Shown: piece by piece, positions 222 to 57,823 of the stretch
Position numbering within the stretch: the first letter of the stretch is position 1
How the letters are laid out: every line of letters starts with the position of its first letter
Source of the DNA: Patescibacteria group bacterium
GTDB lineage: Bacteria > Patescibacteriota > Patescibacteriia > Patescibacteriales > XYC2-FULL-47-12
Direction: 5' to 3'
Assembly: GCA_041652935.1 (NCBI GenBank)
Contig: JBAZGH010000001.1
Span: 7,393 to 71,392, forward strand
DNA length: 64,000 bases
Made by a program: the position numbers and the translations under genes
Notes under the pieces: model-generated
What the model was told of the DNA's origin: nothing
Databases searched by the model: none
What the model saw: the letters and a program-made list of their open reading frames with translations, nothing else

Positions 222-227
222 ATTAAC

Positions 228-476: not shown

Positions 477-492
477 TAATTAAAAAATTAGT

Positions 493-3799: not shown

Positions 3800-3817
3800 T
3801 CCATTTAATTAAGAAGT

Positions 3818-4600: not shown

Positions 4601-4616
4601 AATTTATTTATCGTTT

Positions 4617-6789: not shown

Positions 6790-6805
6790 AATATTAAAAA
6801 TTACT

Positions 6806-10044: not shown

Positions 10045-10052
10045 AATTTTAT

Positions 10053-12157: not shown

Positions 12158-12164
12158 ATTTATT

Positions 12165-13166: not shown

Positions 13167-13218
13167 AATTAATAGATGGTAGTTTTTAAACTAAAAATTT
13201 AATTGTAAAATAAGCACT

Positions 13219-14160: not shown

Positions 14161-14163
14161 AAT

Positions 14164-16225: not shown

Positions 16226-16226
16226 T

Positions 16227-16838: not shown

Positions 16839-16840
16839 TT

Positions 16841-17905: not shown

Positions 17906-17911
17906 AATTAA

Positions 17912-18700: not shown

Positions 18701-18703
18701 TAC

Positions 18704-20042: not shown

Positions 20043-20050
20043 ACAATAAA

Positions 20051-21433: not shown

Positions 21434-21626
21434 GGGTAGGATTATAGTATATTTTTAAGATAAAAGCAAGTTTAGTTTATCTGAGCGCCAAGAGTTTTTG
21501 GCGCTGGATTTATTTACATTTTTTATTTTTTATGTTATCATATTCGGAACGCTGCTTTAGTTTTAAAAAGCAGTTTTTAGATAGGTCTTTGTAAAAAAAC
21601 GAAAAAAACGAATAGGAGACGGTGCT

Positions 21627-23297: not shown

Positions 23298-23308
23298 ATT
23301 TCTAATAA

Positions 23309-23345
23309 CCCCGTTTGAGTTAACACCTCAGCGGGTTTTTATTTT
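23309..23345 (+). terminator. Rho-independent terminator after the radical SAM gene
   Basis: An interrupted GC stem CCCG..TGAG / CTCA.CGGG is followed by TTTTTATTTT. Confidence 0.5.
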
Positions 23346-23383
23346 AAGTTGAATAACTATAAATAATCTGCTATATTAAATAC

Positions 23384-24403: not shown

Positions 24404-24406
24404 TTT

Positions 24407-24483
24407 ATAAAGTTTAAAAGTTGAAAGTTAAAAAGTTCTTGTAAATAAAATACTTTTTAACTTTTAACTTTCTAACTTTTAAT
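24407..24483. repeat. Imperfect palindrome built from AAAGTTN and AACTTTN heptamers around a conserved loop TGTAAATAAAATACTTT (copy A of a family)
   Basis: Read directly. The left arm is aaagtttaaaagttgaaagttaaaaagt and the right arm is actttttaacttttaactttctaacttt. Confidence 0.7.
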
Positions 24484-24496
24484 TAATAATTATTAT

Positions 24497-25612
24497 ATGT
24501 TTAAACAACACAAAAAAGTTATATCACTTATTTTATTATTATTTGTCGCTTTGGGTTTGAGCGGCTGCAGCATTACCTTCGGGACTTCAAGCAATTCTTC
24601 AATGATTGACGGAGGGGTTTATAAGAGTTTTAACCGGGGTGTTGTTTGGAAGCAAAATTCCCTGGTCGCCTCAACCGGCAGCAAGGCAGTAAGTTTTAAT
24701 TCCGCCAACGTGGTCGCGTTAGCGATTGATCCGCAGGATGAGAACGCGATTTACGCCGGCACAGACAACGGTGGAATGCTTTATTCATACGACGGCGGAG
24801 CCAGCTGGAGCGTTGCCCGCGACTTAGGAAAAAGGTATGTGAAAGACATAAAAATAAGCCCGGTTGATAAATGCACAATTTATATTGCTTCCGAGAATAA
24901 AGTATTTAAGTCCGACGACTGCAGCCGGACATGGGATGATGTGTATTATGATAATAATACCGGCGTAATGATAAGAAGTTTAGCAATAGACCCCAGAAAT
25001 GAAAATATAATTTATGCCGGAACTTCGCGGGGAGATGTCATCACATCCTCAGATGCCGGAAAATCATGGAGCGCGCTGAAAAGATTCAGCGAAGATAAAT
25101 TATTCCGCGGCAAGAGCGAGATGAATATTATAAAAATTATTGTCAACCCAAAAAACAGTAATAATTTATGGATAGCCACCGAAGCCAACGGAGTCTTTAA
25201 AAGTATGGATAGGGGGGCGACTTGGCAGAGTTTTGAAGAAGAGTTTAAAGAAATTAACACTTCTAATTCAATATTAGTCAGTGATTTTGATCTTTTTGCC
25301 GGAGACGGGAAAACTATTATAGTTGCTACTAAAGCTGGATTATTAAGAAGTTTTGACGCCGGCGCGCATTGGCAGGTAGTTGATTTAGTCCCTCCATCAG
25401 ACAGCACCGCCATTAACGCGGTTAGGATGCATCCAACCGACGCCAGCATTATCTATTACGCTACAAACACCTCGTTTGGCAGCACAGACGACGGCGGGCA
25501 GGAATGGACCTCAAAGAAACTGCCAAGCACCCGGGCTGGCGCAGTTTTAATATCTGATCCAAGTGATTCTGACGTAGTTTATTTAGGAGTCAAATCAATA
25601 GTTCAGAAATAA
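24497..25612 (+). CDS. Lipoprotein with five BNR/Asp-box repeats (beta-propeller)
   Basis: 371 aa. The lipobox is LSGCS. Five S-x-D-x-G-x-x-W boxes are present: SYDGGASW, SSDAGKSW, SMDRGATW, SFDAGAHW, STDDGGQEW. Confidence 0.65.
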   Translation: MFKQHKKVISLILLLFVALGLSGCSITFGTSSNSSMIDGGVYKSFNRGVVWKQNSLVASTGSKAVSFNSANVVALAIDPQDENAIYAGTDNGGMLYSYDGGASWSVARDLGKRYVKDIKISPVDKCTIYIASENKVFKSDDCSRTWDDVYYDNNTGVMIRSLAIDPRNENIIYAGTSRGDVITSSDAGKSWSALKRFSEDKLFRGKSEMNIIKIIVNPKNSNNLWIATEANGVFKSMDRGATWQSFEEEFKEINTSNSILVSDFDLFAGDGKTIIVATKAGLLRSFDAGAHWQVVDLVPPSDSTAINAVRMHPTDASIIYYATNTSFGSTDDGGQEWTSKKLPSTRAGAVLISDPSDSDVVYLGVKSIVQK

Positions 25613-25630
25613 TTAAATAAATTTATAAAT

Positions 25631-26185
25631 ATGAACCAATACATTCAACAATATCAAGGAGAATTAACGCAGGCGATTGAGCATTTTAAAAAAGAAATTG
25701 CCAGCATCCGCACCGGGCGGGCAAACCCGGCCATATTGGACGCCGTACAAGTTGAATCTTACGGCGTTAAAGTCCCGTTACAGCAAGTGGGCAATATTTC
25801 AGTAGTTGACGCGCATTGCATGACCATAACTCCCTGGGATAAAAATATATTAAAAGAGGTTGAAAAAGGAATTGTAGAGGCAGACCTGGGAATTTCACCG
25901 GTTAACGAGGGTGATAAAATAAGAATTACTATTCCCCAGCCGACCGAAGAAGACCGCAAAAGCAGGGTAAAGAAACTAAATGAAAAATTGGAAGTTTCCC
26001 GCGTGCAAATAAGGCAAGCCAGAGATAAGATAAAAGACGCCATAGAAAAAGCGGAAGACGATAAAGATATTTCCGAGGATGATAAATTCAGGTTTTTGAA
26101 GGAAATGGAAGAAATAGTAAAGAACAACAATGATAAATTGCAAGAAATAAGAGACGGCAAGGAGAAGGAGATAATGACCATCTAA
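25631..26185 (+). CDS. frr: Ribosome recycling factor
   Basis: 184 aa. IASIRTGRANPAILD is the RRF signature. Confidence 0.85.
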   Translation: MNQYIQQYQGELTQAIEHFKKEIASIRTGRANPAILDAVQVESYGVKVPLQQVGNISVVDAHCMTITPWDKNILKEVEKGIVEADLGISPVNEGDKIRITIPQPTEEDRKSRVKKLNEKLEVSRVQIRQARDKIKDAIEKAEDDKDISEDDKFRFLKEMEEIVKNNNDKLQEIRDGKEKEIMTI

Positions 26186-26187
26186 GT

Positions 26188-26266
26188 TAGAAAGTTGAAA
26201 GTCAAAAGTTATAAAGTGCCTGTAAACAAAATACTTTCTAACTTTCAACTTTTAAACTTTTAACTT
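26188..26266. repeat. Copy B of the AAAGTT/AACTTT palindromic element, sharing the loop TGTAAACAAAATACTTT
   Basis: agaaagttgaaagtcaaaagtt ... actttctaactttcaacttttaaactttt. It is about 75% identical to copy A. Confidence 0.7.
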
Positions 26267-26271
26267 ACACT

Positions 26272-27420
26272 ATGTTCACAACAATTATTATATTTTTAGT
26301 TATTTTATCTATTCTAGTTTTTGCCCACGAACTGGGACATTTTTGGACTGCCAAGAAACTGGGCTTAACGCCCAAAGAGTTTGGCTTTGGTTTTCCTCCC
26401 AGAATTGGAGGGTTTTATAAAACTAAGCAAGGCAAATGGCGTTGGAAATGGGGGGGCGGTAAAATAGAAAATATAACGGGAACAATTTACTCAATAAATT
26501 ATCTGCCATTGGGAGGATTTGTTAATGTCGGCGAAGATGATGACATTGGAGGAGACGAAGAGTTAAAAAATGACCCAAAACATTTTAAAAACCAAAAGCC
26601 ATGGAAGCGAGGTGTGATTTTAACCGCCGGGGTGGTGATGAATTTAATACTGGCGGCCGTATTTTTTTCTATCGGCTATATGATTGGTTTGCCTAAAGTT
26701 GTGGATGAGGTTGGTCCGGGAGCGCGGTTTTCGGAAAAAAATATCCAAGTTGTCCAGATTCTTAGCAATACTCCGGCCGAGGAAGCGGGAGTTAAGGTGG
26801 GGGATATAATCATATCGATAAATGGGCAGGAATTTGCAAATTACAAAGATTTAAGCGATTTTGCCGCTTCTAAAAATAATGAACAGCTTGATTATAAAAT
26901 TAAGCGCGGCAAAGAAGAGCTGGATTTAATGATTGTTCCAGAGCCGATTTTTGAAAATGACAATATACCGGGAATTGGAATCGCGATTGCCGAAACCGGC
27001 TTAGTTAGTTATCCATGGTATCTGGCGATTTGGGAAGGTATAAAAACAACCATATTTTTAACCTGGTATATCATAGTTGCTTTTGCAGTTCTGATTAAAA
27101 GTTTAATAATGGGTCATGGAGCCGGGGTGGAAATAGCCGGACCGGTTGGAATCGCCAATATGACGGGGCAGATGGCGCAGCTGGGCTTTGTTTATATTCT
27201 GCAGTTTTCCGCTATTTTATCGATTAACCTGGCGATTATAAATTATTTGCCGTTTCCGGCGCTGGATGGCGGGCGGGTGTTATTTTTAATTATAGAAAAA
27301 TTCCGCGGCAAGCCGGTTTCGGAAAAAGTAGAAGCCTTTATGCATAATTTGGGCTTTATATTATTAATGCTCGCGGTTGCGGTTGTAACTCTTAGGGATG
27401 TGTTAAAATTGTTTAATTAA
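26272..27420 (+). CDS. rseP: RIP zinc metalloprotease (site-2 protease, RseP-like) with a PDZ domain
   Basis: 382 aa. It has HELGHF (HExxH), a PDZ domain in the middle and the C-terminal LDGG motif. Confidence 0.8.
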   Translation: MFTTIIIFLVILSILVFAHELGHFWTAKKLGLTPKEFGFGFPPRIGGFYKTKQGKWRWKWGGGKIENITGTIYSINYLPLGGFVNVGEDDDIGGDEELKNDPKHFKNQKPWKRGVILTAGVVMNLILAAVFFSIGYMIGLPKVVDEVGPGARFSEKNIQVVQILSNTPAEEAGVKVGDIIISINGQEFANYKDLSDFAASKNNEQLDYKIKRGKEELDLMIVPEPIFENDNIPGIGIAIAETGLVSYPWYLAIWEGIKTTIFLTWYIIVAFAVLIKSLIMGHGAGVEIAGPVGIANMTGQMAQLGFVYILQFSAILSINLAIINYLPFPALDGGRVLFLIIEKFRGKPVSEKVEAFMHNLGFILLMLAVAVVTLRDVLKLFN

Positions 27421-27424
27421 ATAA

Positions 27425-29077
27425 ATGATTAAAAAATTATTCACCTCTAAAATAAATTCAATTACTTCAGCAGCAATAATTGTCGCGGCGGCGTCGGTAG
27501 CCAGCCGCTTTTTAGGTATTTTCCGCGATAGGATTTTAGCCGGTGAATTCGGCGCCGGCGATACGCTTGATATCTATTATGCCGCTTTTCGCGTTCCTGA
27601 TTTAGTTTTTAATTTGCTTGTTTTAGGCGCGCTGTCAGCCGGTTTTATCCCGGTATTTGCCGGCTTATGCGAGAAAAAATCCGTTTTTAAATTTTTATGC
27701 CGCGGTAAAGAGAAGTGCGGCCAAGAGGCCTGGTATGTCGCCAACGCGGTAGTGAACTTAATCGGCATTTCTTTGATTATTATTTCAGCAATTTTAGTTA
27801 TTTTTACTCCCCAACTAATGCGTTTAATTACTCCAGGATTTGACGGGGAAAAGTTAAGCATGACAATAGCAATGACCCGCATTATGTTTTTATCTCCATT
27901 CTTTTTGGGTTTAAGTTCGGTTATGGGCGGAATTTTACAGTCATTTAAAAGATTTTTTGTCTATTCAGTCGCGCCGATAATGTATAATATCGGGATTATA
28001 ATCGGCGCTTTGTATTTTGTTCCGATTTGGGGAATTTACGGCTTGGCCTATGGAGTCGTTTTCGGCGCCCTGCTGCATTTTTTAATTCAGGTTCCGACTG
28101 CTTTCCATCTTGGCTACCGTTGGCAGCCGGTGCTTAATTTAAAAAATAAAAATGTCAGGGAAATAATAAAGATGATGGTTCCCCGGACAATGAGTTTGGC
28201 GATTTCCCAGATAAATTTAGTTGTAATTACTATTATCGCCTCTACTCTAGCGGCCGGCAGTTTGGCGATTTTTAATTTTGCCAATAATTTACAGTCATTT
28301 CCCATAGGCATATTCGGCATTTCTTTCGCGATAGCGGCTTTTCCAACCCTATCGTCTTTAGCGGATAGAAAGGAAGAACTAATCCGCAATTTTTCCAAAG
28401 TATTGCGCCAAATTATTTTTTTCATTCTGCCGGCAACAGTTTTCATACTGACTTTGCGCGTGCAAATTATCCGCGTTGTTCTCGGAAGCGGCCAGTTTGA
28501 CTGGGAAGACACTATTTTAACCATGGATACTTTGACTTTTTTTAGTTTAAGTTTATTCGCGCAAGCAACCATCCCGCTTTTAATCCGCATGTTTTACGCC
28601 CAGAAAGACAGCAAGACTCCATTCATTGTCGGCTTAATTTCAGCCATAGCTAATATATTTTTAAGTTTGTGGCTTGCCTCCCGCATGGGCATAGCCGGTT
28701 TGGCGCTGGCTTTTTCCATCGCCATGATAATAAATTTTGCCCTGCTTTGGCTTTTATTAAAAGCAAGGTTGGGCGAATTGGATGAAGTAAATATACTCTA
28801 CTCAACTTTAAAAATTTCTTTAGCCAGTATTTGCGCAGGTCTGGGCGTACAGGCCATGAAATTAATCGTCGGCTCTTCTGCGGTTATTGACATGACCCGT
28901 TTTTGGGGTATATTTACCCAAAGTGCTGTTGCTGGAATTTTCGGCTTGTTTATTTTTATTCTGCTTTGCTGGATGCTGCATGTGGAAGAGCTTTATAATT
29001 TTGTCCGCAGCATCCGCGCCAGAGCCAAGCGGGAAAAAGTTGAAACCGAGGGGCATGGCGAAGCGCGAGGCATTTAA
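27425..29077 (+). CDS. murJ: Lipid II flippase MurJ (MviN family)
   Basis: 550 aa with about 14 transmembrane helices. The N-terminal SRFLGIFRDRILAGEFGAG is typical of MurJ. Confidence 0.8.
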   Translation: MIKKLFTSKINSITSAAIIVAAASVASRFLGIFRDRILAGEFGAGDTLDIYYAAFRVPDLVFNLLVLGALSAGFIPVFAGLCEKKSVFKFLCRGKEKCGQEAWYVANAVVNLIGISLIIISAILVIFTPQLMRLITPGFDGEKLSMTIAMTRIMFLSPFFLGLSSVMGGILQSFKRFFVYSVAPIMYNIGIIIGALYFVPIWGIYGLAYGVVFGALLHFLIQVPTAFHLGYRWQPVLNLKNKNVREIIKMMVPRTMSLAISQINLVVITIIASTLAAGSLAIFNFANNLQSFPIGIFGISFAIAAFPTLSSLADRKEELIRNFSKVLRQIIFFILPATVFILTLRVQIIRVVLGSGQFDWEDTILTMDTLTFFSLSLFAQATIPLLIRMFYAQKDSKTPFIVGLISAIANIFLSLWLASRMGIAGLALAFSIAMIINFALLWLLLKARLGELDEVNILYSTLKISLASICAGLGVQAMKLIVGSSAVIDMTRFWGIFTQSAVAGIFGLFIFILLCWMLHVEELYNFVRSIRARAKREKVETEGHGEARGI

Positions 29078-29107
29078 CACTTAATAAATAACAATTAATA
29101 TTTAATT

Positions 29108-29416
29108 ATGAACAAAATTAATAATTTCCACAAAACAACCATCTTTACTTTTACGCTCGCTTTATTATTTATTTTTTCCGCTATTTTAGTGCAGATAAAA
29201 GGGCAAAGCGAGTTGAGTATGAATTGCAGTTATCTTGACCCCATCACCATAGATATTTTTGCTTTTATATTCGCCCTATTTTTAGTTATTGAAGGAATGT
29301 ATAAAATATATCAGGATAAAGATGCGGCATTGACGAAACAAATGACGAGGAGCATTAGAGTTTCCGTTGGCATGGCTATTTTAACTCTCCATATTCTGCA
29401 GTTTTTTTATAAGTAG
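29108..29416 (+). CDS. Small hypothetical membrane protein
   Basis: 102 aa with three predicted transmembrane segments. No recognisable family. Confidence 0.35.
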   Translation: MNKINNFHKTTIFTFTLALLFIFSAILVQIKGQSELSMNCSYLDPITIDIFAFIFALFLVIEGMYKIYQDKDAALTKQMTRSIRVSVGMAILTLHILQFFYK

Positions 29417-29467
29417 CAGCGGAATCTGTAAATAAAAAACGTAAATTATTAATATATAATTTATTTT

Positions 29468-31348
29468 ATGAATCACATACGTAACTTCTGTATAATCGCG
29501 CACATAGATCACGGCAAGTCCACATTGGCAGACAGGATGCTTGAAATAACGGGAACGGTGGAAAAAAGGAAAATGAAAGAGCAATTGCTGGACAGGATGG
29601 ACTTGGAAAGAGAGCGGGGGATAACCATTAAACTGCAGCCCGTTAATATGGAGTACGAAGGATACCATTTGAATTTAATCGATACTCCCGGGCACGTGGA
29701 TTTTTCCTATGAAGTTTCAAGAAGTTTAGCGGCTGTTGAGGGCGCTGTTTTGTTAGTGGACGCAACTCAAGGAATACAGGCGCAGACGCTGGCGAACCTT
29801 TATTTAGCGCTTGACCAAAATTTAGAGATAGTACCGGTTGTAAATAAAATTGATTTGCCCGCGGCGGATGTAAAAGGAACAAAAGAAAGCATTGTTAAAT
29901 TGCTTGGATGCAAACAAGAAGAAATTTTAGAGGCCAGCGGAAAGACCGGCGCAGGAGTGAAGGAAATTTTACAGGCAGTTATTGATTGTGTGCCGCCGCC
30001 CAAGACAACCGCGGAAAATAAATTGCGCGCTTTAATTTTTGACTCTGTTTACGACGAATATAAGGGCGTAGTCGCCTATGTCCGGCTGGTTGACGGAGAA
30101 GTTAAGAAAGGGGATGAGATAAAAATGGTTACGACTAAATATGAAAGCGACGCCCTTGATGTCGGCGTCTTCAAGCCGGATTATAAATCGACCGGAGAGC
30201 TGAGAACAGGAGAAATCGGCTATATTGTGACTGGCCTTAAATCAGTTGAAGAGTGCAAAGTCGGAGATACCATAACATTATCGAACGCTTTAATAGCGTC
30301 CCCCTCCTTAAGCGAGGGGACAGGGGTGGTGATGAAAAATAAAAATCACACCCCCCCAACCCCCCCCTCGTCCAAGGGGGGGCGCGTTCGCGCAATGGTT
30401 GTCGCACTTCCCGGCTATAAAGAAGTAAAGCCGATGGTTTTTGCGGGGATATTCTGCAAAGAGGGAAATGAGTATGAAGAGCTGCGCGAGGGCATTGGAA
30501 AATTAAAATTAACTGATTCAGCCCTGGTTTATGAACCGGAGCATTCACAGGCGCTGGGCTTCGGGTTCCGATGCGGATTTTTAGGCCTGCTTCACCTGGA
30601 AATATTCCAAGAGCGCTTGCGCCGGGAGTATGGCTTGGGGCTGGTAGTTACAACGCCTTCAGTTGCTTATCAGCTTAAAAAAACCGGCGGGGAAGAGATG
30701 ATAGTGCGCTCGGCCCTGGATATGCCTGACCCCGCGCATATCGCTTCCATAAAAGAGCCGTGGGTAACCTTAGATGTAATTTCCCCCAAAGATTATATGG
30801 GAGGAATTATGTCTTTAGTGCAGGAAAAGCGGGGAACATATAAAAATACTGAGTACATTGACGATAACCGAGTAATTTTGCATTACGAAATGCCGATGTC
30901 GACTATCCTAACTGATTTTTATGACAAAGTAAAAAGCGCAACATCTGGTTACGCTTCTATTAATTATGAATTTTTAGATTACCGGAATTGCGAGGTGCAG
31001 CGATTGGACATTTTAGTCGCAGAAGAGCAGGTTGAATCTTTGGCAACTATTGTTTATAAGGACGAGGCGTTTAAGCGCGGCAAAGAAATTGTGAACTCGC
31101 TGAAAAATACATTGCCGCGCCAGCAGTTTGTTTTAAAAATACAGGCAGCTATTGGCGGTAAAGTAATCGCGGCTGAAAGAGTGTCCGCCTTGCGGAAAGA
31201 TGTAACTGCTAAATTATACGGCGGCGATGTTTCCCGCAAGCGCAAACTTTTAGAAAAGCAGAAAAAAGGGAAGAAGAAAATGATGTCTATGGGCAAGGGC
31301 AAGGTTGATATTCCGCCGGAGGCGTTCCTTGCGGTGTTAAAGAAATAA
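29468..31348 (+). CDS. lepA: Elongation factor 4 (LepA), carrying a roughly 34-aa in-frame insertion
   Basis: 626 aa. The G-domain motif NFCIIAHIDHGKSTLADR and the LepA C-terminal domain are present. The insertion lies between TITLSNA and ALPGYKEVKP. Confidence 0.85.
   Translation: MNHIRNFCIIAHIDHGKSTLADRMLEITGTVEKRKMKEQLLDRMDLERERGITIKLQPVNMEYEGYHLNLIDTPGHVDFSYEVSRSLAAVEGAVLLVDATQGIQAQTLANLYLALDQNLEIVPVVNKIDLPAADVKGTKESIVKLLGCKQEEILEASGKTGAGVKEILQAVIDCVPPPKTTAENKLRALIFDSVYDEYKGVVAYVRLVDGEVKKGDEIKMVTTKYESDALDVGVFKPDYKSTGELRTGEIGYIVTGLKSVEECKVGDTITLSNALIASPSLSEGTGVVMKNKNHTPPTPPSSKGGRVRAMVVALPGYKEVKPMVFAGIFCKEGNEYEELREGIGKLKLTDSALVYEPEHSQALGFGFRCGFLGLLHLEIFQERLRREYGLGLVVTTPSVAYQLKKTGGEEMIVRSALDMPDPAHIASIKEPWVTLDVISPKDYMGGIMSLVQEKRGTYKNTEYIDDNRVILHYEMPMSTILTDFYDKVKSATSGYASINYEFLDYRNCEVQRLDILVAEEQVESLATIVYKDEAFKRGKEIVNSLKNTLPRQQFVLKIQAAIGGKVIAAERVSALRKDVTAKLYGGDVSRKRKLLEKQKKGKKKMMSMGKGKVDIPPEAFLAVLKK
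30296..30398. mobile_element. GC-rich palindromic miniature element inserted in frame within lepA
   Basis: Hairpin 1 is GTCCCCCTC-CTTAAGC-GAGGGGAC. AGGGGTGGTG and CACACCCCCC are complementary. Hairpin 2 is CCCCCCC-TCGTCCAA-GGGGGGG. The element is about 60-70% GC in an AT-rich gene and resembles the element at 42711-42872. Confidence 0.55.
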
Positions 31349-31468
31349 CACAACACGTATTACATAACGCAAACATATGAAAAGAAAAACAATTAAAAAA
31401 GTTATCGGCACCAGCATAATAATCATAATGATTATCGCTATGCTGTTATTTACTTTAATGCCGTTGTT

Positions 31469-31509
31469 TTATTAAAAAATAAAAAGCCGTTTCCAATTCT
31501 GAAAACGGC
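31469..31509 (-). terminator. Rho-independent terminator for the minus-strand small gene
   Basis: On the minus strand the stem GCCGTTT / AAACGGC is followed by TTTTTATTTTTT. Confidence 0.6.
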
Positions 31510-31513
31510 AGTG

Positions 31514-31708
31514 TCATCTAGAACTCCAAAGATAATAGACCGTAATAAAACAGAGAGCGGCCAGGAACCATCTCACCACCTTATAGATTAGAAATCCGAC
31601 TGTATCCCGTATTTCTCGTCTATAAAAATAATCTTCGCCCGCTCCGATAACAATAAATCCAACGACGAATAAGATAAAGCCTAGTATAGTTTTCATTGCG
31701 GGGTCCAT
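31514..31708 (-). CDS. Small two-helix membrane protein
   Basis: 64 aa. A strong SD AGGAGG lies 8 nt upstream, and its own terminator follows. Confidence 0.5.
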   Translation of the reverse strand: MDPAMKTILGFILFVVGFIVIGAGEDYFYRREIRDTVGFLIYKVVRWFLAALCFITVYYLWSSR

Positions 31709-31761
31709 TTCCGCCTCCTTTTTTGAAATAGATGTAAAGATATTAGCATTATTTTAAAGTT

Positions 31762-33573
31762 TTGTCAATTTTTATGGATAAAAAGTGGATTATAAAGGAA
31801 AAACAGGAATACACTAAAAACAATCCGGGATTGCACCCGGTTATTTTTCGATTACTGGCAAATCGCGGTTTTAGCGTTGATGAAATAGAGAAATTTTTAA
31901 AGCTGGATTACAAGGAAAATTTACATGATCCATTCTTATTTAAAAATATGAAAGCAGCGGTAGAATTGATTTTTAAGCACATGAAGAATGGAAGCAGAAT
32001 TATAATATACGGAGATTATGACGCTGACGGTGTTACAGCCACGGCGGTTATGCAGAAGACATTGGAATTTTTAGGATGCAAGAATTTAGATATTTACATT
32101 CCCCACCGCGAAAGCGAGGGATACGGCATAAATAAAAGCGCGGTAGAGGAAATTGCCAAAAGCGGCGCTAGTTTAATTATCACAGTTGATACCGGCATTA
32201 GAAGCATCGGCGAGGTTGCGCTAGCTAAAGAAAAGGGAATGGACGTTGTTTTAACCGACCATCATGAATGCGGCGAACAGGTTCCCGATTGCTTGATTAT
32301 TAATCCAAAAGTTAACGGCGAAAAATATCCATTCAGGGATTTGGCCGGAGTTGGCGTGGCGTTTAAAGTGTCGCAGGCGTTGTTGTACGCACGCGAAAAC
32401 CATGCGCAACATAACGCAAAACAACGCGAAAAAGAGGGATTTGAAAAGTGGCTATTGGATTTAGTAGCCATAGGCACCATTGCTGATTTAATGCCATTAG
32501 TTAATGAGAATAGAGTTTTGGTGAATTATGGATTAGTCGTATTGAATAAGACGCAGAGAATCGGCATTAAAAAATTAATGGAAACCGCGCAAAGCGATAC
32601 TGATAAAAATGGAAATAAGCGGGAAGTTGACGCTTGGCAAATTGGTTATCAATTAGCCCCTCGCTTAAATGCGGCTGGTCGGCTTGGGCGCGCAAATACG
32701 GCCTACGAATTACTTATTACTGAAGATAAACAAGAAGCAACAGAAATAGCCCATAAATTAGACAATACGAATAAAGAACGCCAAAATATTACACAAGAAA
32801 TTTTTGAGCAGGCAGAGCAAGAGATTAATAAGAAAAACAAAATTTTATTTGCTGTTTATAATGGAGAGCAAAAGAACGCCTGGTCTTCAGGAGTGATGGG
32901 TTTGGTGGCTGGAAAATTAACAGAAAAATATTACCGGCCATCGTTGGCGATTACAAGCAAAATTGGCAATGATGGGTTGGAAATTGTCGGGAGCGCCAGA
33001 AGTATTGCTGAATTTAACATTACATCCATGCTGGAGGAATGCGGTGAATTATTATCGCATTACGGCGGGCACAAACAGGCGGCCGGATTCACCATAAAGC
33101 CGGGAAAATTAGATGAGTTTTTAGCCAAAGCAAAAAAAATTACTGAACATGAATTAAAAGATGTTGAATTAATCCCCGCCCTAGAAATTGATTTAGAGAT
33201 AAATTTTAATGACGTGTCTGAAGATTTATATGAAGCATTGCAAAAATTAAGGCCCTTCGGAGTTAAAAATGCCCAACCAAAATTTGTTAGCAAAAATTTA
33301 AAAGTGATAAATGCAGTTAAGATGGGGAATGAACAACAACATCTCAAGTTACAAGTTACAAGTTACAAGTCACAAAAATTAAGCGCAGTTGGTTTTAGCG
33401 TATTGGAAGAATGGAAAAAAATAAAAATTGGAGACGAAATTGATTTAGTGTATTATATAGATATGAACGAATGGAACGGGAGGAGGGAAGTTCAGTTGAA
33501 GATTATAGACCTAAAAAATAATTCAAATATTCAAATGAATTCAAATACCTCAAATACAAATAATTCGAATTAA
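31762..33573 (+). CDS. recJ: Single-stranded-DNA-specific exonuclease RecJ
   Basis: 603 aa. DHH motifs (IIIYGDYDADGVTA, DHH) and DHHA1 are present. The C-terminal tail is N/S-rich low-complexity sequence encoded by TTCAAAT repeats. Confidence 0.8.
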   Translation: MSIFMDKKWIIKEKQEYTKNNPGLHPVIFRLLANRGFSVDEIEKFLKLDYKENLHDPFLFKNMKAAVELIFKHMKNGSRIIIYGDYDADGVTATAVMQKTLEFLGCKNLDIYIPHRESEGYGINKSAVEEIAKSGASLIITVDTGIRSIGEVALAKEKGMDVVLTDHHECGEQVPDCLIINPKVNGEKYPFRDLAGVGVAFKVSQALLYARENHAQHNAKQREKEGFEKWLLDLVAIGTIADLMPLVNENRVLVNYGLVVLNKTQRIGIKKLMETAQSDTDKNGNKREVDAWQIGYQLAPRLNAAGRLGRANTAYELLITEDKQEATEIAHKLDNTNKERQNITQEIFEQAEQEINKKNKILFAVYNGEQKNAWSSGVMGLVAGKLTEKYYRPSLAITSKIGNDGLEIVGSARSIAEFNITSMLEECGELLSHYGGHKQAAGFTIKPGKLDEFLAKAKKITEHELKDVELIPALEIDLEINFNDVSEDLYEALQKLRPFGVKNAQPKFVSKNLKVINAVKMGNEQQHLKLQVTSYKSQKLSAVGFSVLEEWKKIKIGDEIDLVYYIDMNEWNGRREVQLKIIDLKNNSNIQMNSNTSNTNNSN

Positions 33574-50808: not shown

Positions 50809-52002
50809 ATGAAAATAAAAACAATTAAAAATATTAAGAATTTGCGAGGCAAAAGAGTTCTTGTTCGTTGTGATTTTAATGTTGCAATCAAAGACCATAA
50901 AATAATTGACGATTTTAAAATTATCCAAACTTTGCCCACTATTAGATATTTAACAAATAAGGGAGCGAAAGTTATTATTATTACTCATTTAGGCAGGCCT
51001 ACGACAAGCAACAAGCCACAAGCAACAAGTAATCAAAAATATACCATCAAACCGATTATAATTCGGTTGAATAAACTTTTAGGAAAAAAAGTTAAATATT
51101 TAGAAAATTTTTTAGATGACGGTGCTAAAGATGCGGTTAATGATTTAAAAAACGGGCAAATATTAATGTTGGAAAATATTAGGTTTTATCAAGGAGAAAA
51201 GAAAAATGACAAAAAATTCGGCAAAGAATTAGCCGGCTTGGCTGATATTTATGTAAATGACGCGTTGGCGGTTTCACATCGGGCGCACGCTTCAGTCAGC
51301 GCCATCCAAAATTTTTTGCCGTCTTACTCCGGATTATTGCTGGAAAAAGAAATATTGAATTTAAATAAAATTATCCATCCGCAAAAGCCGTTGGCGGTAA
51401 TTATGGGAGGCGCTAAAATAGAAACCAAGGTGCCGGTCATAAAAAAACTCGCGAAAAAAGCCAGTGTAATTTTTATCGGCGGAATGATAAGCTATGATTT
51501 TTTAGCAGCTTTGAAATTAAGTACCGGCAAATACAAAGTTAACGTAAAAAATAAAAAGCTGGCAAGAAAGTTATTGGGCAAAAAAATAATTTTGCCGATA
51601 GATTTTGTGGCCAGTAGTTCTAAAAATGGGCGGGGAAAAATACGGGTTGTGGCTGCCGATGAAATTCCTAAAAATAGCTGGCAACTAGACATCGGGCCGG
51701 AAACAATCCGTTTTTATTCTCAGCATCTTAAACAGGCAAAAACGATAATCTGGAACGGGCCAATGGGCATGTTTGAAAATGATAAATTTAAAAACGGAAC
51801 ATTATCTATTGCCCGGGTAGTTGCTTCCGTGTCGCAAGGCAGGGCTTTTGGCATTGCCGGCGGAGGAGAAACCGTTGTTGCTTTAAAAAAAACAAAAATG
51901 CTTGAGCATGTTGACTGGGTATCAACCGGAGGCGGAGCAATGCTGGCGTATCTGGCTGGAGAGAAGATGCCGGGACTAACTAAGTTAAAAGTTGGAAAGT
52001 AA
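50809..52002 (+). CDS. pgk: Phosphoglycerate kinase
   Basis: 397 aa. It has VLVRCDFNV, HLGRP and GGGA motifs. Confidence 0.85.
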   Translation: MKIKTIKNIKNLRGKRVLVRCDFNVAIKDHKIIDDFKIIQTLPTIRYLTNKGAKVIIITHLGRPTTSNKPQATSNQKYTIKPIIIRLNKLLGKKVKYLENFLDDGAKDAVNDLKNGQILMLENIRFYQGEKKNDKKFGKELAGLADIYVNDALAVSHRAHASVSAIQNFLPSYSGLLLEKEILNLNKIIHPQKPLAVIMGGAKIETKVPVIKKLAKKASVIFIGGMISYDFLAALKLSTGKYKVNVKNKKLARKLLGKKIILPIDFVASSSKNGRGKIRVVAADEIPKNSWQLDIGPETIRFYSQHLKQAKTIIWNGPMGMFENDKFKNGTLSIARVVASVSQGRAFGIAGGGETVVALKKTKMLEHVDWVSTGGGAMLAYLAGEKMPGLTKLKVGK

Positions 52003-52098: not shown

Positions 52099-52863
52099 AT
52101 GCAGAAGCAAAATAATCAAATTTTATTAATTTTAGCCGGCATTTTGACTTTAGTAATTGTAATTTGGATTGGGGTTTTGACGCGCAATAGTCTGAAAGAA
52201 TACCGCTATATAGGGCAGAGCGCCGAGCAGAAGCATTCTATTTATATGAACGGCGAGGGAAAAATTACCGCCGTGCCTGATATCGCTAAAATCCAGCTTG
52301 GCCATTCGGTAGAAAAAAAGAAAGTGGCTGACGCGCAGAAAGAAAATACGGAAAAAATGAACGCGGTTATAAAGAAATTAAAAGAAGAGTTTGATATAGA
52401 GGCTAAAGATATCCAAACCGCCAATTACAATATTTACCCGCAGTATAATTGGACCGACGGGCGGCAAGTGTTGGGCGGATATGAGGTTTCCCAGAATATA
52501 AGCGTAAAAATAAGGGACTTGAATAATATCAGTGATATTTTAGATATGGCCGGGGCAGAAGGATTGAACCAAGTCGGCGGATTAAGTTTTGAGGTTGACG
52601 ATCCGCAGGAACTAAAACAGCAGGCGCGAGAGCTTGCTATACAGCATGCCAAAGAAAAAGCAGAGAGCCTGGCTAAAGTCGCCGGCGTAAAGCTTGGCAA
52701 CATAATCAGTTTTTCTGAATATTCAACCGAACCTCAGTACAGCACTAATAACTTTTTAGCCAAAGAAGCGTACGGCCTGGGCGGAGCTGACAGTTCCCCC
52801 GATGTGGAGGTTGGCAGTACGGAAGTTATCGTAACGGCAACAGTGGAATATGAGATATATTAG
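52099..52863 (+). CDS. SIMPL-domain (DUF541/YggE-like) protein
   Basis: 254 aa. It has an N-terminal transmembrane segment and SIMPL-domain features. Confidence 0.55.
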   Translation: MQKQNNQILLILAGILTLVIVIWIGVLTRNSLKEYRYIGQSAEQKHSIYMNGEGKITAVPDIAKIQLGHSVEKKKVADAQKENTEKMNAVIKKLKEEFDIEAKDIQTANYNIYPQYNWTDGRQVLGGYEVSQNISVKIRDLNNISDILDMAGAEGLNQVGGLSFEVDDPQELKQQARELAIQHAKEKAESLAKVAGVKLGNIISFSEYSTEPQYSTNNFLAKEAYGLGGADSSPDVEVGSTEVIVTATVEYEIY

Positions 52864-52952: not shown

Positions 52953-54223
52953 ATGCTTAAAATTAGAAATATAACAGCTCGTGAAATTTTAGATTCTCGG
53001 GGAAATCCGACCGTGGAGGCGCAAGTGGAGCTTGAAAACGGAATTAAAGCCAAAGCATCAGTACCGTCAGGCGCATCCACTGGCGACCACGAAGCGCATG
53101 AATTGCGCGACGGCGATAAAGATCGCTATAGCGGGTTGGGCGTGCTTAAGGCTGTAAAAAATGTAGAAAGTAAAATTGCGCCGGAATTACGGGGAACTGA
53201 TTGTACCAAGCAGGAAAAAATTGATCAAACAATGATTAAGCTGGACGGCACTAAAAATAAAAAGAAATTGGGCGCGAATGCTATTTTGGCAGTATCACTA
53301 GCCTGTGCGCGAGCTGCATCTGTATCTGAAAAGCAGGAATTATATGAATACATTCGTCAATCTTACAACTCACAACTTACAACCTACAATTTACCTGTGC
53401 CGAGTTTTAATATATTTAACGGCGGCAAGCATGCTGATACGAATTTGGATTTTCAGGAATTTATGGTTATTCAATGGCAAAAAATTATAAGAAGGGGCAG
53501 TTTGCCGAACAGATTAAAATGGGAGCTGAAATATTCCATGAATTGGGAAAAGTTTTGCTTGAATCGGGGTTTGATACTGACGTTGGCAGTGAAGGCGGAT
53601 ACGCGCCCGATATTTATTCTTCCGTGCAGGCGATGGAATTTATTATGGCGGCCGGAGTTAGAACCGGCTACCAAATAGGGAAAGATTTCGGGCTGGGGAT
53701 TGACGTCGGTTCTTCCGAACTTTATGACTTGCGGACAAAAAAATATATTTTTAAGCTAGATCAGGCCATTTTCGCCAATTCCACCCTAGTTGATTTATAC
53801 CACGAATGGCTGAAAAAATTTAATGTTATCTCAATTGAGGATGGTCTGGCCCAGGATGACTGGGAAGGATGGGAGGAACTTACCAGAATGCTAAAAAAAG
53901 AAGTAATGATAGTGGGTGATGATTTGTTTGTCACAAATATTGAGCGCTTAAAAAAGGGGATAAAGAAAAAAGTTGCCAATACGATTTTAATAAAGCCCAA
54001 TCAGGTCGGAACTTTGACCGAAACCATAGAATGTGTTAAATTAGCAAAAAAGAATAAATATAAAATATTTGTTTCGCACCGCAGCGGAGAGACAACGGAT
54101 GATTTTATTGCCGACTTGGCGGTAGCGGTTGGGGCTGATTATGTTAAATTCGGGTCGCTAAGCAGGGGAGAGAGAGTTTGCAAATACAATAGATTAATGG
54201 AGATTGAAAATTTAGTTAATTAG
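52953..54223 (+). pseudogene. eno: Enolase, with the reading frame broken by a -1 shift near 53466-53476
   Basis: ORF 52953-53678 matches the enolase N-terminal half up to [11 protein letters not shown] 53474-54223, in another frame, continues with [15 protein letters not shown] through the C-terminal SHRSGETTDDFIADLAVA. Confidence 0.7.
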
Positions 54224-54231
54224 TTACACAA

Positions 54232-55821
54232 ATGAAAAATTTTAATAATATCAAAACTAAACCGCTTATTCTTATTATTCTTGATGGTTGGGGCATCGCT
54301 CCGCCAAACAAAGGCAACGCGGTAACCTTAGGAAAAACTCCGACTATGGATAAGCTTGCGAAAAATTATCCGTACACTGAATTATTCGCGCACGGGAAAA
54401 ATGTCGGCCTGCCCAGCTACCAGGACGGAAACAGCGAGGCCGGGCATATGAATATCGGCGCCGGGAGAATCGTCAACCAGGATGTTATTAAAATAAGCAA
54501 AAGCATTAAAGATAAAACTTTTTTTAAGAATGCTGCTTTCTTGCAAGCGATAAAACATGCTAAAGATAATCGATCCCACCTTCATTTAATGGGTCTGCTT
54601 TCAAACGGAATGAGCGCGCACAGCGATCCATTCCACATTGAAGCTCTTTTAAAATTGGCGCGCGAGCATGGGATAAAAAATACTTATTTGCATCTATTTA
54701 CCGACGGTCGGGACTCTCCCCAGCATGCCGCCCTAAAATTAGTGCAGGATTTAGAAAGAAAGCTTTTGCCCAATGAGTATATCGCTACCGTAATGGGCCG
54801 TTATTATGGCATGGACCGTAAGAAAAATTGGAAAGTTACCCAGCAGGCTTATGATGTGTTAACTTGCAAAAAATGCCGTTGGCACAGCTCAAAAGATACT
54901 GCCAGTGCGATTACGCAAAGCTATAACCGCAATAATACGGATGAATTTTTAGAACCGTATGTTATTTTGCGGAAAAATAAAATATTGCCTCGCATAGAAA
55001 ATAATGACAGTATTATTTTTTTTAATTTGCGTTCTGACCGCGCCCGCCAAATAGCAAAGGCTTTTACTCAAGATGATTTTGAGATTAAAAATAAGGGTTC
55101 ATTTAAACGGAAGGAAAAGTTAAAACATTTATGTTTTGTAGCGATGACGGATTTCGGGCCTGACCTAGAATCTATTTTAACGGCTTTTCCCAGTACTGAC
55201 ATGGAAAATACTCTGCCGATGCAATTAAAAGATTGCAGGCAAATTTATATGGCGGAGACGGAAAAATACGCCCATGTAACTTATTTTTTTAACGGCGGTT
55301 ATGCCGATCCGGTGGCGGGAGAGCAAAGGATCCACGTGCCGTCTCCAGACGTAAAATCATATGACCAAAAACCGGAAATGAGTTCGCGGGAGCTGACTGA
55401 TAATATTTTAAAATTTATAAAAAATAAAAATTTTGATTTTCTTACAGTAAATTATGCCTGTCCCGATATGATAGGCCACACAGGAAATTTAGGGGCCGGA
55501 ATCTTGGCAGTTGAAGCCGTTGATAATTATCTTAGTAAAATTATAGCTGAAGCTGAAAAAAATAGAATTAGAATCATAATTACCGCCGACCACGGGAATA
55601 TTGAAGAAATGATCAAGCTTGATACCGGCGAGGTTAACACTGAACACACAACCAATAAAGTGCCGTTTATTTTCTTTGACAATGAGTTCAAAAAAGCAGA
55701 ATTAAGCCAAAAGGGAATTTTAGGCGATATTGCTCCATTTATATTAATGCTGTTGCAAAAGGAAAAACCGAAGACAATGAATAGGGGGATAATGATAAAC
55801 AAAAAGAAATGGAAGCTTTAA
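54232..55821 (+). CDS. gpmI: 2,3-bisphosphoglycerate-independent phosphoglycerate mutase
   Basis: 529 aa. DGWG, NSEAGH, TDGRDS, TADHGN and EHTTN are all present. Confidence 0.8.
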   Translation: MKNFNNIKTKPLILIILDGWGIAPPNKGNAVTLGKTPTMDKLAKNYPYTELFAHGKNVGLPSYQDGNSEAGHMNIGAGRIVNQDVIKISKSIKDKTFFKNAAFLQAIKHAKDNRSHLHLMGLLSNGMSAHSDPFHIEALLKLAREHGIKNTYLHLFTDGRDSPQHAALKLVQDLERKLLPNEYIATVMGRYYGMDRKKNWKVTQQAYDVLTCKKCRWHSSKDTASAITQSYNRNNTDEFLEPYVILRKNKILPRIENNDSIIFFNLRSDRARQIAKAFTQDDFEIKNKGSFKRKEKLKHLCFVAMTDFGPDLESILTAFPSTDMENTLPMQLKDCRQIYMAETEKYAHVTYFFNGGYADPVAGEQRIHVPSPDVKSYDQKPEMSSRELTDNILKFIKNKNFDFLTVNYACPDMIGHTGNLGAGILAVEAVDNYLSKIIAEAEKNRIRIIITADHGNIEEMIKLDTGEVNTEHTTNKVPFIFFDNEFKKAELSQKGILGDIAPFILMLLQKEKPKTMNRGIMINKKKWKL

Positions 55822-57395
55822 TGACAAATAATAAATTAACGGTTTTATGCATCATTGACGGCTGGGGTGTTGCCGCGCCTTACAACGGCAATGCAGTTAC
55901 TGAAGCTGATTTGCCCAATATAAATAAGATAATTTCCCAATATCCGGTTACAACCCTAGAAGCCGGCGGGGAAGCGGTGGGGCTGGAAGAAGGATTGGCC
56001 GGCAATAGCCGCCAGGGCCATTTTGTTATTGGAACCGGGCAAAGAGCCGACTCTGATTTACTTAGGATAAACAACGCAATCAGGGATAAAACTTTTTTTA
56101 AAAATAAAATTTTGAAAGAAGCGGTTAGACACGCCGAGAAAAACAATTCAAGCATACACATATTAGGATTAGTTTCCGAAGATAAAATTCACTCATCCTT
56201 TAGCCACTTGTTGTCCTTGATGGATTTTTTTAAAAAACGTAAAGAGCAGAAAATTTATTTAGACCTTATTATTTCAGAAGAAGAGTCATCTCTGAATTTA
56301 TTAAGGGAAATCCAGCAAAAGGCGGATAAATATGAGAATATCGAGATAGCAACGATTTCCGGAAGTTTTTACGCAATGGATGGATATGGCAATTGGGACC
56401 GTACTATTAAATTTTATCAGGCGCTGGCGGAGGGGGAGTGTAAAAATAAATTTGACAGCATTTCAAAGGCCGTTGAATTTTATAATAATAATAAAAAAAT
56501 TGCCGCCAGCGGGATTATTCCGACAGTTTTAATAAAAAATAGCCGTCCAGTCGCCACAGTTAAAGAAAAAGACGTTTTAATATTCTTCAATTTTAACCCC
56601 AGAGGAATGGGGCAGATAGTTCAAGCATTTTCTCTGCCCAGCCTAGCTAAGTTCCCGGAGCGCAAAAAATATTTTCCTGATTTATTTATCGCCTGCATGA
56701 CAGAGTATGAAAAGTATCTGCCGGTTAAAGTTATTTTTGATCATCCGGAAATTAACGCCACTTTAAATAAAATTTTAGCGGAAAACAGCAAAAAACAGCT
56801 ATTTATAACCGAAACCGAAAAATATCCTTATTTAAATTATTTTTTTAATGGATTCCAGTATTTTTTTAATGGGGGCGATAATCGGATATTGATTTCGGCC
56901 GAGCCGACAAAGGATGTTTATGGCAGCCAGGAAATATCAGCCGAAAAGATTACCGCCGTAGCGATAAAAGAAATAAAAAAAGGCGCCTATGATTTTATCG
57001 CCCTTAATTATGGAAGCGCCGATATTTTAGCAGATTCCGGCAAACTGGAAGCCGTTATTGCCGGATTGAAAGCAATAGATAAAAATATAGGAAATCTGCG
57101 AAAAGTGGTTTTGTCTGTCGGCGGAACGCTTATCATAACATCAAGCCATGGAAATTGCGAAGAGATGGTAAGCCGCCACAGTGAAGAGATGAATGAAAAA
57201 AATACAAACAACCCAGTTCCTTTTATACTTGCAAACAATAACTTGGAGGGGATTAGCTTGAATAAAGCGGACGCCGCCGGCATTGATTTAAGCGATTTAA
57301 AACCAACAGGAAGCTTACTTGATATTGCTCCGACTATTTTAAAAATTATGGGGATTAAAAAGCCGGATGAAATGGAGGGAAAAAGTTTACTTTAG
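55809..57395 (+). CDS. Divergent iPGM paralogue, likely catalytically impaired
   Basis: 528 aa. DGWG and NSRQGH are kept. The TDGRD position reads SEEES, ADHGN reads SSHGN, and the downstream H reads N (NTNNPVPF). Confidence 0.65.
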   Translation: MEALMTNNKLTVLCIIDGWGVAAPYNGNAVTEADLPNINKIISQYPVTTLEAGGEAVGLEEGLAGNSRQGHFVIGTGQRADSDLLRINNAIRDKTFFKNKILKEAVRHAEKNNSSIHILGLVSEDKIHSSFSHLLSLMDFFKKRKEQKIYLDLIISEEESSLNLLREIQQKADKYENIEIATISGSFYAMDGYGNWDRTIKFYQALAEGECKNKFDSISKAVEFYNNNKKIAASGIIPTVLIKNSRPVATVKEKDVLIFFNFNPRGMGQIVQAFSLPSLAKFPERKKYFPDLFIACMTEYEKYLPVKVIFDHPEINATLNKILAENSKKQLFITETEKYPYLNYFFNGFQYFFNGGDNRILISAEPTKDVYGSQEISAEKITAVAIKEIKKGAYDFIALNYGSADILADSGKLEAVIAGLKAIDKNIGNLRKVVLSVGGTLIITSSHGNCEEMVSRHSEEMNEKNTNNPVPFILANNNLEGISLNKADAAGIDLSDLKPTGSLLDIAPTILKIMGIKKPDEMEGKSLL

Positions 57396-57823
57396 AAAAA
57401 ATAATATCCAATTGCGCTGACAGCGATTCCTATAAGGCACCCCGTTAAAACCTGCAATGGAGTATGCCCTATTTTTTCCAATAATTTGGGATAATGCTCT
57501 TCCAATACTTTATCATCCTTTAAATCTTTTACCAAGATATTTAAAATTTTTCCATGCTGGCCGAGATAACGCCTCAAACCGATCGCGTCTCGAATGACCA
57601 CAACGGCAAAAATAAAAGATAAGGCGAAAACAGGAGAGCCCCACCCTTCAATTAGGACGATGATTAAAGCCAGAGATGACACTGCCGCGGAGTGCGAAGA
57701 GGGCATCCCCGAATAGGCTAATAAATTTTTAAAATTAAATTTTAGCTTGTTGCTTGAAACAAAAAATTTGATAATTTGGGCGACAGCGCCGGCAATAATC
57801 GGCAATAAGATAATTTTTATCAT
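57392..57823 (-). CDS. Divergent PAP2 / DUF212 membrane phosphatase-like protein
   Basis: 143 aa. SGMPSSHSA and the RD motif are present. Confidence 0.55.
   Translation of the reverse strand: MIKIILLPIIAGAVAQIIKFFVSSNKLKFNFKNLLAYSGMPSSHSAAVSSLALIIVLIEGWGSPVFALSFIFAVVVIRDAIGLRRYLGQHGKILNILVKDLKDDKVLEEHYPKLLEKIGHTPLQVLTGCLIGIAVSAIGYYFF

Follow-up and report, generated by a model that had tools for sequence, protein, structure and literature searches.

A 64,000-nt stretch of a contig from a Patescibacteria group bacterium (the window, which throughout means this whole stretch) encodes two adjacent homologues of cofactor-independent phosphoglycerate mutase (iPGM). The second of these, judged from its sequence, is probably a pseudoenzyme: a protein that has kept the iPGM fold and lost mutase catalysis and that is nevertheless held under purifying selection. 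The upstream gene (copy 1; 54232..55821, forward strand; 529 aa) is a canonical gpmI that has all 15 catalytic positions, matches TIGR01307, and belongs to the group called 'up' below. The downstream gene (copy 2; 55809..57395, forward strand; 528 aa) is a degenerate homologue of the 'dn' type with 7 of the 15 positions. The two open reading frames (ORFs) overlap by 13 nt (55809..55821, forward strand), where copy 1 ends with a TAA at 55819-55821 and copy 2 begins. Both ORFs and their overlap had been given correctly in a preliminary description of this DNA, which proposed that copy 2 is likely a pseudo-enzyme or a neofunctionalised protein. That proposal is upheld by the confirmed residue losses, by intact orthologues, and by a ratio of nonsynonymous to synonymous substitution rates (dN/dS) below 1.

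Catalytic residues and fold of the two copies

We mapped residues with BLASTP against copy 1, with HMMER against the G. stearothermophilus iPGM (1EJJ), and with MAFFT in an alignment with 120 homologues, using 1EJJ numbering for the positions. The two copies share 31% identity from end to end (E 5e-82), and residues 9-528 of copy 2 align to residues 4-509 of 1EJJ (E 1e-93, HMMER). From the 1EJJ structure, we take Asp12, Ser62, Asp444, and His445, together with Asp403, His407, and His462, to be the ligands of two Mn ions. Likewise, from 1EJJ and 1O98, we take His123, Arg153, Asp154, Arg185, Arg191, Arg261, Arg264, and Lys336 to bind phosphoglycerate and Ser62 to be the nucleophile. The catalytic importance of these 15 positions is also backed by their invariance across homologues, as 96 of 155 aligned sequences and almost every one of the 120 closest homologues carry the identical signature.

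Copy 1 carries the motifs DGWG, GNSEAGH, TDGRD, ADHGN, and EHTTN. The corresponding motifs of copy 2 are DGWG, GNSRQGH, SEEES with a four-residue gap, SSHGN, and EKNTNN, and the three aligners yield one identical residue map for this protein. The residues that copy 2 retains are the equivalents of Asp12 (D17), Ser62 (S67), His66 (H71), His123 (H128), Lys336 (K338), Asp403 (D405), and His445 (H447), of which S67 and H71 lie in the preserved nucleophile motif GNSRQGH (56007..56021; this and all further coordinates inside copy 2 are on the forward strand). Among the phosphoglycerate-binding residues, only the His123 and Lys336 equivalents are left, and the other six positions read Glu, gap, Ser, Gly, Asn, and Gly. 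Specifically, SEEES followed by the gap stands in place of (T)DGRD (56274..56288), so that Arg153 is replaced by E158 and Asp154 lies opposite the gap; S186 and G192 replace Arg185 and Arg191 (56364..56384); and N263 and G266 replace Arg261 and Arg264 (56595..56606).

The seven-ligand site for two Mn2+ ions is also incomplete, with three of the seven ligands lost. D405 is retained, and close to it D409 replaces His407 (57021..57035), a position that is still His in the orthologues P0002 to P0004 described below. S446-H447 takes the place of Asp444-His445 (57144..57149; SSHGN versus ADHGN), and N465 replaces His462 (57201..57203). Because copy 2 lacks residues that hold the phosphoglycerate and ligands of the metals, it is not expected to catalyze the mutase reaction. 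Two technical causes for these losses were rejected: an alignment artefact, given that three independent aligners concur, and sequencing error, given that orthologues share the substitutions.

The preliminary description had listed DGWG, NSEAGH, TDGRD, ADHGN, and the downstream His as kept in copy 1, DGWG and NSRQGH as kept in copy 2, and three replacements in copy 2 (SEEES for TDGRD, SSHGN for ADHGN, and Asn for the His of EHTTN), all of which are seen in the alignments. However, it understated the extent of the loss by overlooking four arginines and H407. It had also allowed that properly gapped alignment with a characterized iPGM might restore the missing residues, and such alignment instead lengthened the list of losses.

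The iPGM fold is retained. Both copies match PF06415 and PF01676, and copy 2 has the complete two-domain iPGM architecture in which PF01676 is split by PF06415 (Pfam E values of 6e-44 and 4e-43). An AlphaFold2 model of copy 2 has a mean predicted local distance difference test score (pLDDT) of 92.4 and a predicted template modeling (TM) score of 0.90. When this model was searched with Foldseek, the top 22 matches were all iPGM structures (TM up to 0.88), whereas phosphopentomutase structures reached 0.36-0.39 at most. No Pfam or NCBIfam match beyond the iPGM models was found for copy 2 among other families of the alkaline phosphatase superfamily (phosphopentomutase, NPP, sulfatase), whereas copy 1 gives weak Pfam matches to such families. 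A segment without counterpart in copy 1 or in Bacillus iPGM is the dn-specific loop at residues 480-499 (57246..57305; EGISLNKADAAGIDLSDLKP), which includes the near-invariant residues G481 and D493-L494-S495 and has low pLDDT in the model.

Copy 2 is named iPGM at NCBI on the strength of the TIGR01307 equivalog model (cutoff of 330.65 bits), which it exceeds with 395.6 bits; copy 1 scores 564.8 bits. This score, the retention of Ser67, His71, His128, and Lys338, and the presence of an Arg one to two residues away from positions 261 and 264 (NPRG) might be taken to indicate a working phosphoglycerate mutase, as annotated, in which other residues compensate for those that were lost. We consider this very improbable. 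Eight of the 15 positions are changed, including every substrate-binding Arg and three metal ligands, and a fully canonical copy is encoded directly upstream. Furthermore, P0184, a family member with 3 of the 15 residues, also clears the cutoff, and the score is therefore uninformative regarding activity.

Orthologues, selection, and a wider degenerate family

The degenerate pattern of copy 2 recurs in three proteins from a 90%-clustered protein database, P0002 (68% identity), P0003 (58%), and P0004 (55%), whose contigs have the gene order (pgk-)eno-canonical iPGM-degenerate iPGM. Contigs L001 and L004 reach further and continue with a DUF212 gene on the opposite strand, BacA, and CAP. Overall, four other metagenomic lineages (L001, L004, L007, and L009) have an intact orthologue of copy 2, with 37-68% identity, at this place in the tandem, and all lineages that were examined, some with as little as 31-37% identity, have full-length, intact ORFs. 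The arrangement, whose conservation in relatives the preliminary description had singled out as a check, is thus not peculiar to this genome.

Within the clade formed by the window sequence and its three closest orthologues, D17, D405, and H447 are invariant, and Ser67 is present in three of the four (window, P0002, and P0003), with Asn in P0004. The most distant of the syntenic orthologues, P0054 (from L009; NCBI assembly GCA_023659515.1), is 36-37% identical to copy 2, shares the dn insertion, and lies in the order PDZ-pgk-eno-canonical iPGM-P0054-DUF212, the last gene again being on the opposite strand. Its decay has taken a different course: Ser62 is Ile, His66 is Tyr, His407 is Thr, Asp444 is Pro, His445 is Phe, and His462 is Asn, and all four substrate-binding arginines are kept. 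Searches for additional relatives added little. A scan of GTDB genomes with copy 2 alone as query found no relative, a GTDB species genome scan with the alignment as query returned relatives of at most 42% identity and no close orthologue of copy 2, and a metagenome scan yielded nothing new except a duplicate of L004.

Selection was assessed by computing dN/dS with the NG86 method on the same genome pairs for both copies, YN00 being unusable on most pairs owing to saturation. For copy 2, dN is 0.21-0.37 and dN/dS is 0.11-0.22, whereas for copy 1 dN is 0.07-0.23 and dN/dS is 0.045-0.10; dS exceeds 1 in both cases, and the values are rough. The dN/dS comparison that the preliminary description had called for thus places copy 2 well below 1. 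Its dN is about 1.2-3 times that of copy 1, with the greatest ratio in the closest genome pair. The two domains of copy 2 evolve at similar rates, which rules out relaxation confined to one domain.

The faster change of copy 2, the lineage-specific decay of its catalytic residues, and the existence of a redundant canonical copy are features that a decaying pseudogene, a functionless duplicate on its way to being lost, would also have. Such a fate is highly unlikely here. A stop-free frame of 528 codons has a chance probability of 6e-18 at this base composition, and the other forward frames contain 40 and 53 stops. The ORFs are intact and full-length in all lineages, dN/dS is low, the AlphaFold2 model is of high confidence, and motifs outside the active site are strongly conserved. 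Moreover, reduced genomes rarely retain useless 1.6-kb genes. With these data on selection and conservation, the reading of copy 2 as a decaying pseudogene is already contradicted.

The extent of the phenomenon was gauged with an exhaustive search of 1.84 billion representatives clustered at 50% identity. The narrow window clade is one such cluster (1,008 bits; next match, 449 bits). Approximately 55 of the top 150 matches depart from the canonical signature, and approximately 25 are heavily degenerate. Counted as 50%-identity clusters, the degenerate sub-radiation of the dn clade numbers at least 25. The preliminary description had located the phenomenon at a single tandem locus, where it does indeed occur, but its distribution proves to be far wider.

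Residue counts over 27 aligned degenerate members show that between 3 and 11 of the 15 catalytic positions are retained, in differing combinations. Arg153 is kept in none of the 27, Ser62 in 10 (with Cys instead in 7), Asp444 in 9 (with Ser in 13), and His462 in 6 (with Asn in 11). No new active-site constellation is conserved across these 27 members. What is near-invariant instead are the glycines and prolines of the fold, G481, D493-L494-S495, and the helix that follows the insertion. Windowed conservation gives the same picture: the degenerate and canonical dn sequences score 0.43 versus 0.88 over residues 61-70, 0.51 versus 0.92 over 331-340, 0.43 versus 0.89 over 401-410, and 0.59 versus 0.87 over 441-450, and 0.63-0.80 versus 0.56-0.78 over residues 491-520. 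In the degenerate family, conservation is therefore gone from the active-site segments and is held on the fold core, the dn loop, and the C-terminal helix. When a profile of the 27 degenerate sequences was run against a word-indexed database, most of the matches were canonical iPGMs, and the family gained no members.

The seven members with Cys at the Ser62 position are P0121, P0125, P0134, P0144, P0153, P0180, and P0240. Several of these have otherwise intact metal ligands, such as P0121 (DCHHIRRRYKDNDHH), and their sequences hint that the Cys-bearing members might form a chemically distinct subgroup.

These data bear on the second half of the original proposal, that copy 2 is a neofunctionalised enzyme. 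Such an enzyme would work through a reduced metal site (D17, S67, H447, and D405) on some other substrate that is not anionic; it could be, for instance, a phosphatase or phosphotransferase whose metal preference has changed. In its favor, the replacements S446, N465, N263, and G266 are as invariant in the four-sequence window clade as the retained D17, D405, and H447; the same changes at Asp444 and His462 recur in the 13 and 11 family members noted above; and the Cys found in place of the Ser nucleophile could hint at altered chemistry in some members. On the other hand, the nucleophile is gone in the orthologues P0004 (Asn), P0054 (Ile), and P0158 (Leu), the combinations of retained residues vary across the family, the greatest loss of conservation falls in the active-site segments, and copy 2 lacks even the weak matches of copy 1 to other families of the superfamily. 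We regard a new enzymatic function as unlikely, albeit less so than a working mutase or a dying gene. A pseudoenzyme fits copy 2 better than a new enzyme does, because orthologues have lost different residues, the Ser nucleophile included, and no alternative constellation is conserved.

It is conceivable that a dead copy still binds 3-phosphoglycerate, 2-phosphoglycerate, or a related ligand and thereby reports the glycolytic state. P0054, P0158, P0133, and P0121 would suit such a metabolite sensor, as they keep all four substrate-binding arginines, His123, and Lys336 and have lost the nucleophile and metal ligands. The window clade, however, has lost those very arginines, and sensing is thus neither a family-wide function nor that of copy 2; we give this explanation very little credence.

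Two old paralogue clades and their gene order

The pair did not arise by recent duplication. Copy 2 has none of the indels specific to copy 1, and it carries its own 13-residue insertion ahead of the C-terminal helix. The GTDB species scan recovered eight Patescibacteria loci with tandem iPGM genes (L013, L014, L015, L018, L019, L020, L021, and L024), including representatives assigned to Falkowbacteria (L013), Buchananbacteria (L019), and Magasanikiibacteriota (L024). Both copies are canonical in seven of these loci (L013-L015, L018, L020, L021, and L024), and the downstream copy of the Buchananbacteria locus (L019:1477-3057) is canonical apart from R153W.

In a neighbor-joining tree with 100 bootstraps, copy 1 and all upstream copies form the 'up' clade (100% support), whereas the 'dn' clade (69%) unites copy 2 with every downstream copy and with some Patescibacteria iPGMs that occur as single copies. 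An insertion of 13-14 residues (EG...DLS...P.G) before the C-terminal helix is present in all dn members, copy 2 included, and in no up member nor in Bacillus. The dn subclade (L019_dn, (L009_dn, window clade)) has support values of 91%, 77%, and 100%, and the heavily degenerate sequences nest in the dn clade beside L019_dn, all of them with the insertion. Because two old clades coexist, the pair must be ancient, and a portion of the dn clade gave up catalysis only afterward. The tandem paralogue of the preliminary description is thus not to be read as a recent duplicate of copy 1: a recent in situ duplication is ruled out by the absence of copy-1 indels and by the grouping of copy 2 with the other clade, and in other Patescibacteria the two clades coexist with both copies canonical. 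The loss of Arg153 may have been the first step toward degeneracy, given that L019_dn (R153W) is sister to the degenerate radiation and that no degenerate member has this residue.

Two further observations concern canonical sequences. The record titles of L014, L018, L020, L021, L035, and L073 in GTDB read 'uncultured Gammaproteobacteria bacterium'. These look like taxonomic mislabels; the tandem pairs of L014, L018, L020, and L021 cluster tightly with the Patescibacteria up and dn clades, and L035 and L073 were not in the tree. In addition, Arg153->Lys covaries with Arg264->Ser (or Asn) recurrently in otherwise canonical Patescibacteria iPGMs (P0030, P0040, P0067, P0087, P0090, P0119, and others), which may represent a tolerated alternative mode of substrate binding.

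Of the 11 contexts with enough upstream sequence, 10 have a canonical up copy immediately before the degenerate one. The 10 are the window, L001, L004, L007, L009, L093 (a fragment), L094 (Magasanikbacteria), L096, L097, and L098, and most of the contexts are short metagenomic contigs. The spacing between the two genes ranges from -13 nt in the window to +126 nt (-4 to +126 nt in relatives). The L098 pair (L098:2417-5539) resides in another neighborhood, with no pgk or eno upstream and with HD, isochorismatase, and Fpg genes downstream, which suggests that the canonical and degenerate genes move together as a unit. The exception is L095:4001-5584 (P0158; DLYHVRRRRKDDSIY), where a degenerate dn copy follows straight after enolase and where no second iPGM homologue was found in the 9.6 kb that were examined of this 14.7-kb contig. 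Should the L095 genome encode no other phosphoglycerate mutase, its glycolysis would be interrupted even though its annotation says otherwise.

In the window, the pair belongs to a string of same-strand genes, which was read as ORFs with neighbors assigned by Pfam. The conserved glycolytic string is headed by pgk (50809..52002, forward strand; PF00162 in syntenic loci), followed by a SIMPL/DUF541 gene (52099..52863, forward strand; Pfam) and enolase (52953..54223, forward strand), which lies directly upstream of copy 1. A SIMPL/DUF541 gene also occurs between pgk and eno in L097 and immediately before eno in L004 and L096, and it is missing from L001, L009, and L095, so that it is a variable insertion in the string.

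A 1-nt deletion near position 53473, in a Pro codon (window 53448-53480), divides the enolase gene into two ORFs that overlap (52953..53678 and 53474..54223); here the window reads ATT-CA-ATGGCA and L004 and L001 read ATT/ATG-CCG/CCA-ATGGCA. Either the frameshift is a mistake of assembly or sequencing, or the enolase of this genome is truly broken.

The 13-nt overlap between copies 1 and 2 is consistent with cotranscription and possible translational coupling. An alternative in-frame ATG for copy 2 at 55821 would create TAATG, a 1-nt overlap with copy 1, and database entries differ on the start: P0001 (524 aa) begins at 55821, and P0307 (528 aa; NCBI MFA5317909.1) begins at 55809. Downstream of copy 2 lies its conserved neighbor, a convergent DUF212 (divergent PAP2) gene (57392..57823, reverse strand) that shares 4 nt with the 3' end of copy 2, and BacA comes next. 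Scans for promoters and terminators showed no excess of sites over shuffled sequence and do not inform the operon boundaries. Elsewhere in the window, GC content jumps at ~20 kb from 0.27-0.33 (1-20000) to 0.39-0.46 (20001-32000); to the right of this step are ordinary housekeeping genes for a sugar transferase, a radical SAM protein, DNA polymerase III delta', an M50 protease, MurJ, LepA, and RecJ.

A possible role and its significance

Copy 2 has lost catalytic residues, and its gene is intact and constrained across lineages, a combination that, on these sequence comparisons, is that of a pseudoenzyme. How such a protein came to be retained can be sketched conditionally. Once the up copy had taken over catalysis, the dn copy would have been retained only for a pre-existing noncatalytic role, perhaps one already present in canonical dn proteins. 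This role would most plausibly be to bind another protein by way of the dn loop and the C-terminal surface, with the coexpressed active iPGM, another enzyme of lower glycolysis, or a regulator as candidates. By analogy with dead paralogues of the 'prozyme' type, copy 2 might then act as a regulatory or scaffolding subunit.

Several points weigh against this account. The replacements at the active site of the window clade are themselves invariant, and the site may thus have been remodeled rather than abandoned. The dS values are saturated (>1), leaving dN/dS only rough. The phylogeny is a neighbor-joining tree only, and the monophyly of the degenerate sequences may owe something to long-branch attraction. 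The L095 copy has no canonical neighbor, and an active partner next to the dead copy is thus not a requirement. Finally, the binding partner and the noncatalytic activity of copy 2 are predictions, supported only indirectly by the conserved loop and C-terminal helix and by the pairing with an active copy in 10 of 11 contexts.

'Prozymes' are dead paralogues that serve as regulatory subunits, such as the trypanosomatid AdoMetDC prozyme and bacterial HisZ. Copy 2 resembles them as an inactive paralogue that selection has retained next to an active enzyme with which it is presumably coexpressed. In the iPGM pair, however, a complex and an effect on activity are predictions, and in L095 the dead copy has no adjacent active copy.

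Among the known systems closest to copy 2, GpmI of G. stearothermophilus (PDB 1EJJ and 1O98) shares with it the two-domain phosphatase/transferase fold, the length, and the pgk-eno-gpmI position. However, copy 2 adds the 13-residue loop before the C-terminal helix and has lost nine catalytic or binding equivalents. By homology, copy 2 belongs to the iPGM family, but it lacks the metal-ligand and substrate-binding features that define the enzyme and ought not to be listed as a functional GpmI. The canonical dn-type iPGMs in metagenome-assembled genomes of Falkowbacteria, Buchananbacteria, and Magasanikiibacteriota (L013-L024) share with copy 2 the clade, the DLS loop, and the place behind an up-type iPGM, but they keep 15 of the 15 positions (R153W in L019 excepted), compared with 7 in copy 2.

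A parallel for the loop comes from the cyanobacterial enzyme iPGAM (Synechocystis Slr1945), in which a 17-residue loop near the C terminus that starts with EGE affects binding of the regulator PirC and is tied through a beta-strand to a catalytic His (PMC12077085). In our alignment, the insertion of Trichodesmium iPGM coincides in position with the dn loop, and the cyanobacterial and dn loops are similar in length, in their EG- start, and in their C-terminal location, each being lineage specific. In contrast to copy 2, the cyanobacterial enzyme is active; the loops are not demonstrably homologous, and no PirC-like partner is known here. The analogy is a lead that lends the partner-binding model plausibility only.

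Full-text literature searches, which did not reach most subscription journals, turned up no account of iPGM pseudoenzymes or inactive iPGMs, nor of duplicated phosphoglycerate mutases or tandem iPGMs in the candidate phyla radiation (CPR). We rate as new a pseudoenzyme clade inside the well-known iPGM family, pseudoenzymes as such being already known. A more ambitious proposition, which we put forward tentatively and with less assurance than the pseudoenzyme assignment itself, is that tandem-iPGM Patescibacteria possess a large iPGM-derived pseudoenzyme family whose members could be obligatory noncatalytic partners of active iPGM or lower-glycolysis enzymes, acting as 'prozyme' or scaffold with the DLS loop as interaction surface, and of which the Cys subset may have new chemistry.

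Phosphoglycerate mutase paralogues have been found mainly in larger bacterial genomes, and iPGM paralogues are rare in bacteria (Foster et al., PMC2964296). An old tandem iPGM pair in the reduced genomes of Patescibacteria runs counter to this pattern. For genome annotation, the admission of members with 3 of 15 residues by TIGR01307 means that metabolic reconstructions can count a dead protein as a phosphoglycerate mutase, and in cases of the L095 type the annotation might conceal a real gap in glycolysis. The family also forms a natural series, from canonical proteins through one with R153W only to members with 3 of the 15 residues, that can be used to study the change from enzyme to pseudoenzyme. 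For the organisms themselves, the ultra-small genomes of CPR/Patescibacteria are thought to shed dispensable genes, and the conservation of a dead 1.6-kb glycolytic copy implies a noncatalytic role in central carbon metabolism.

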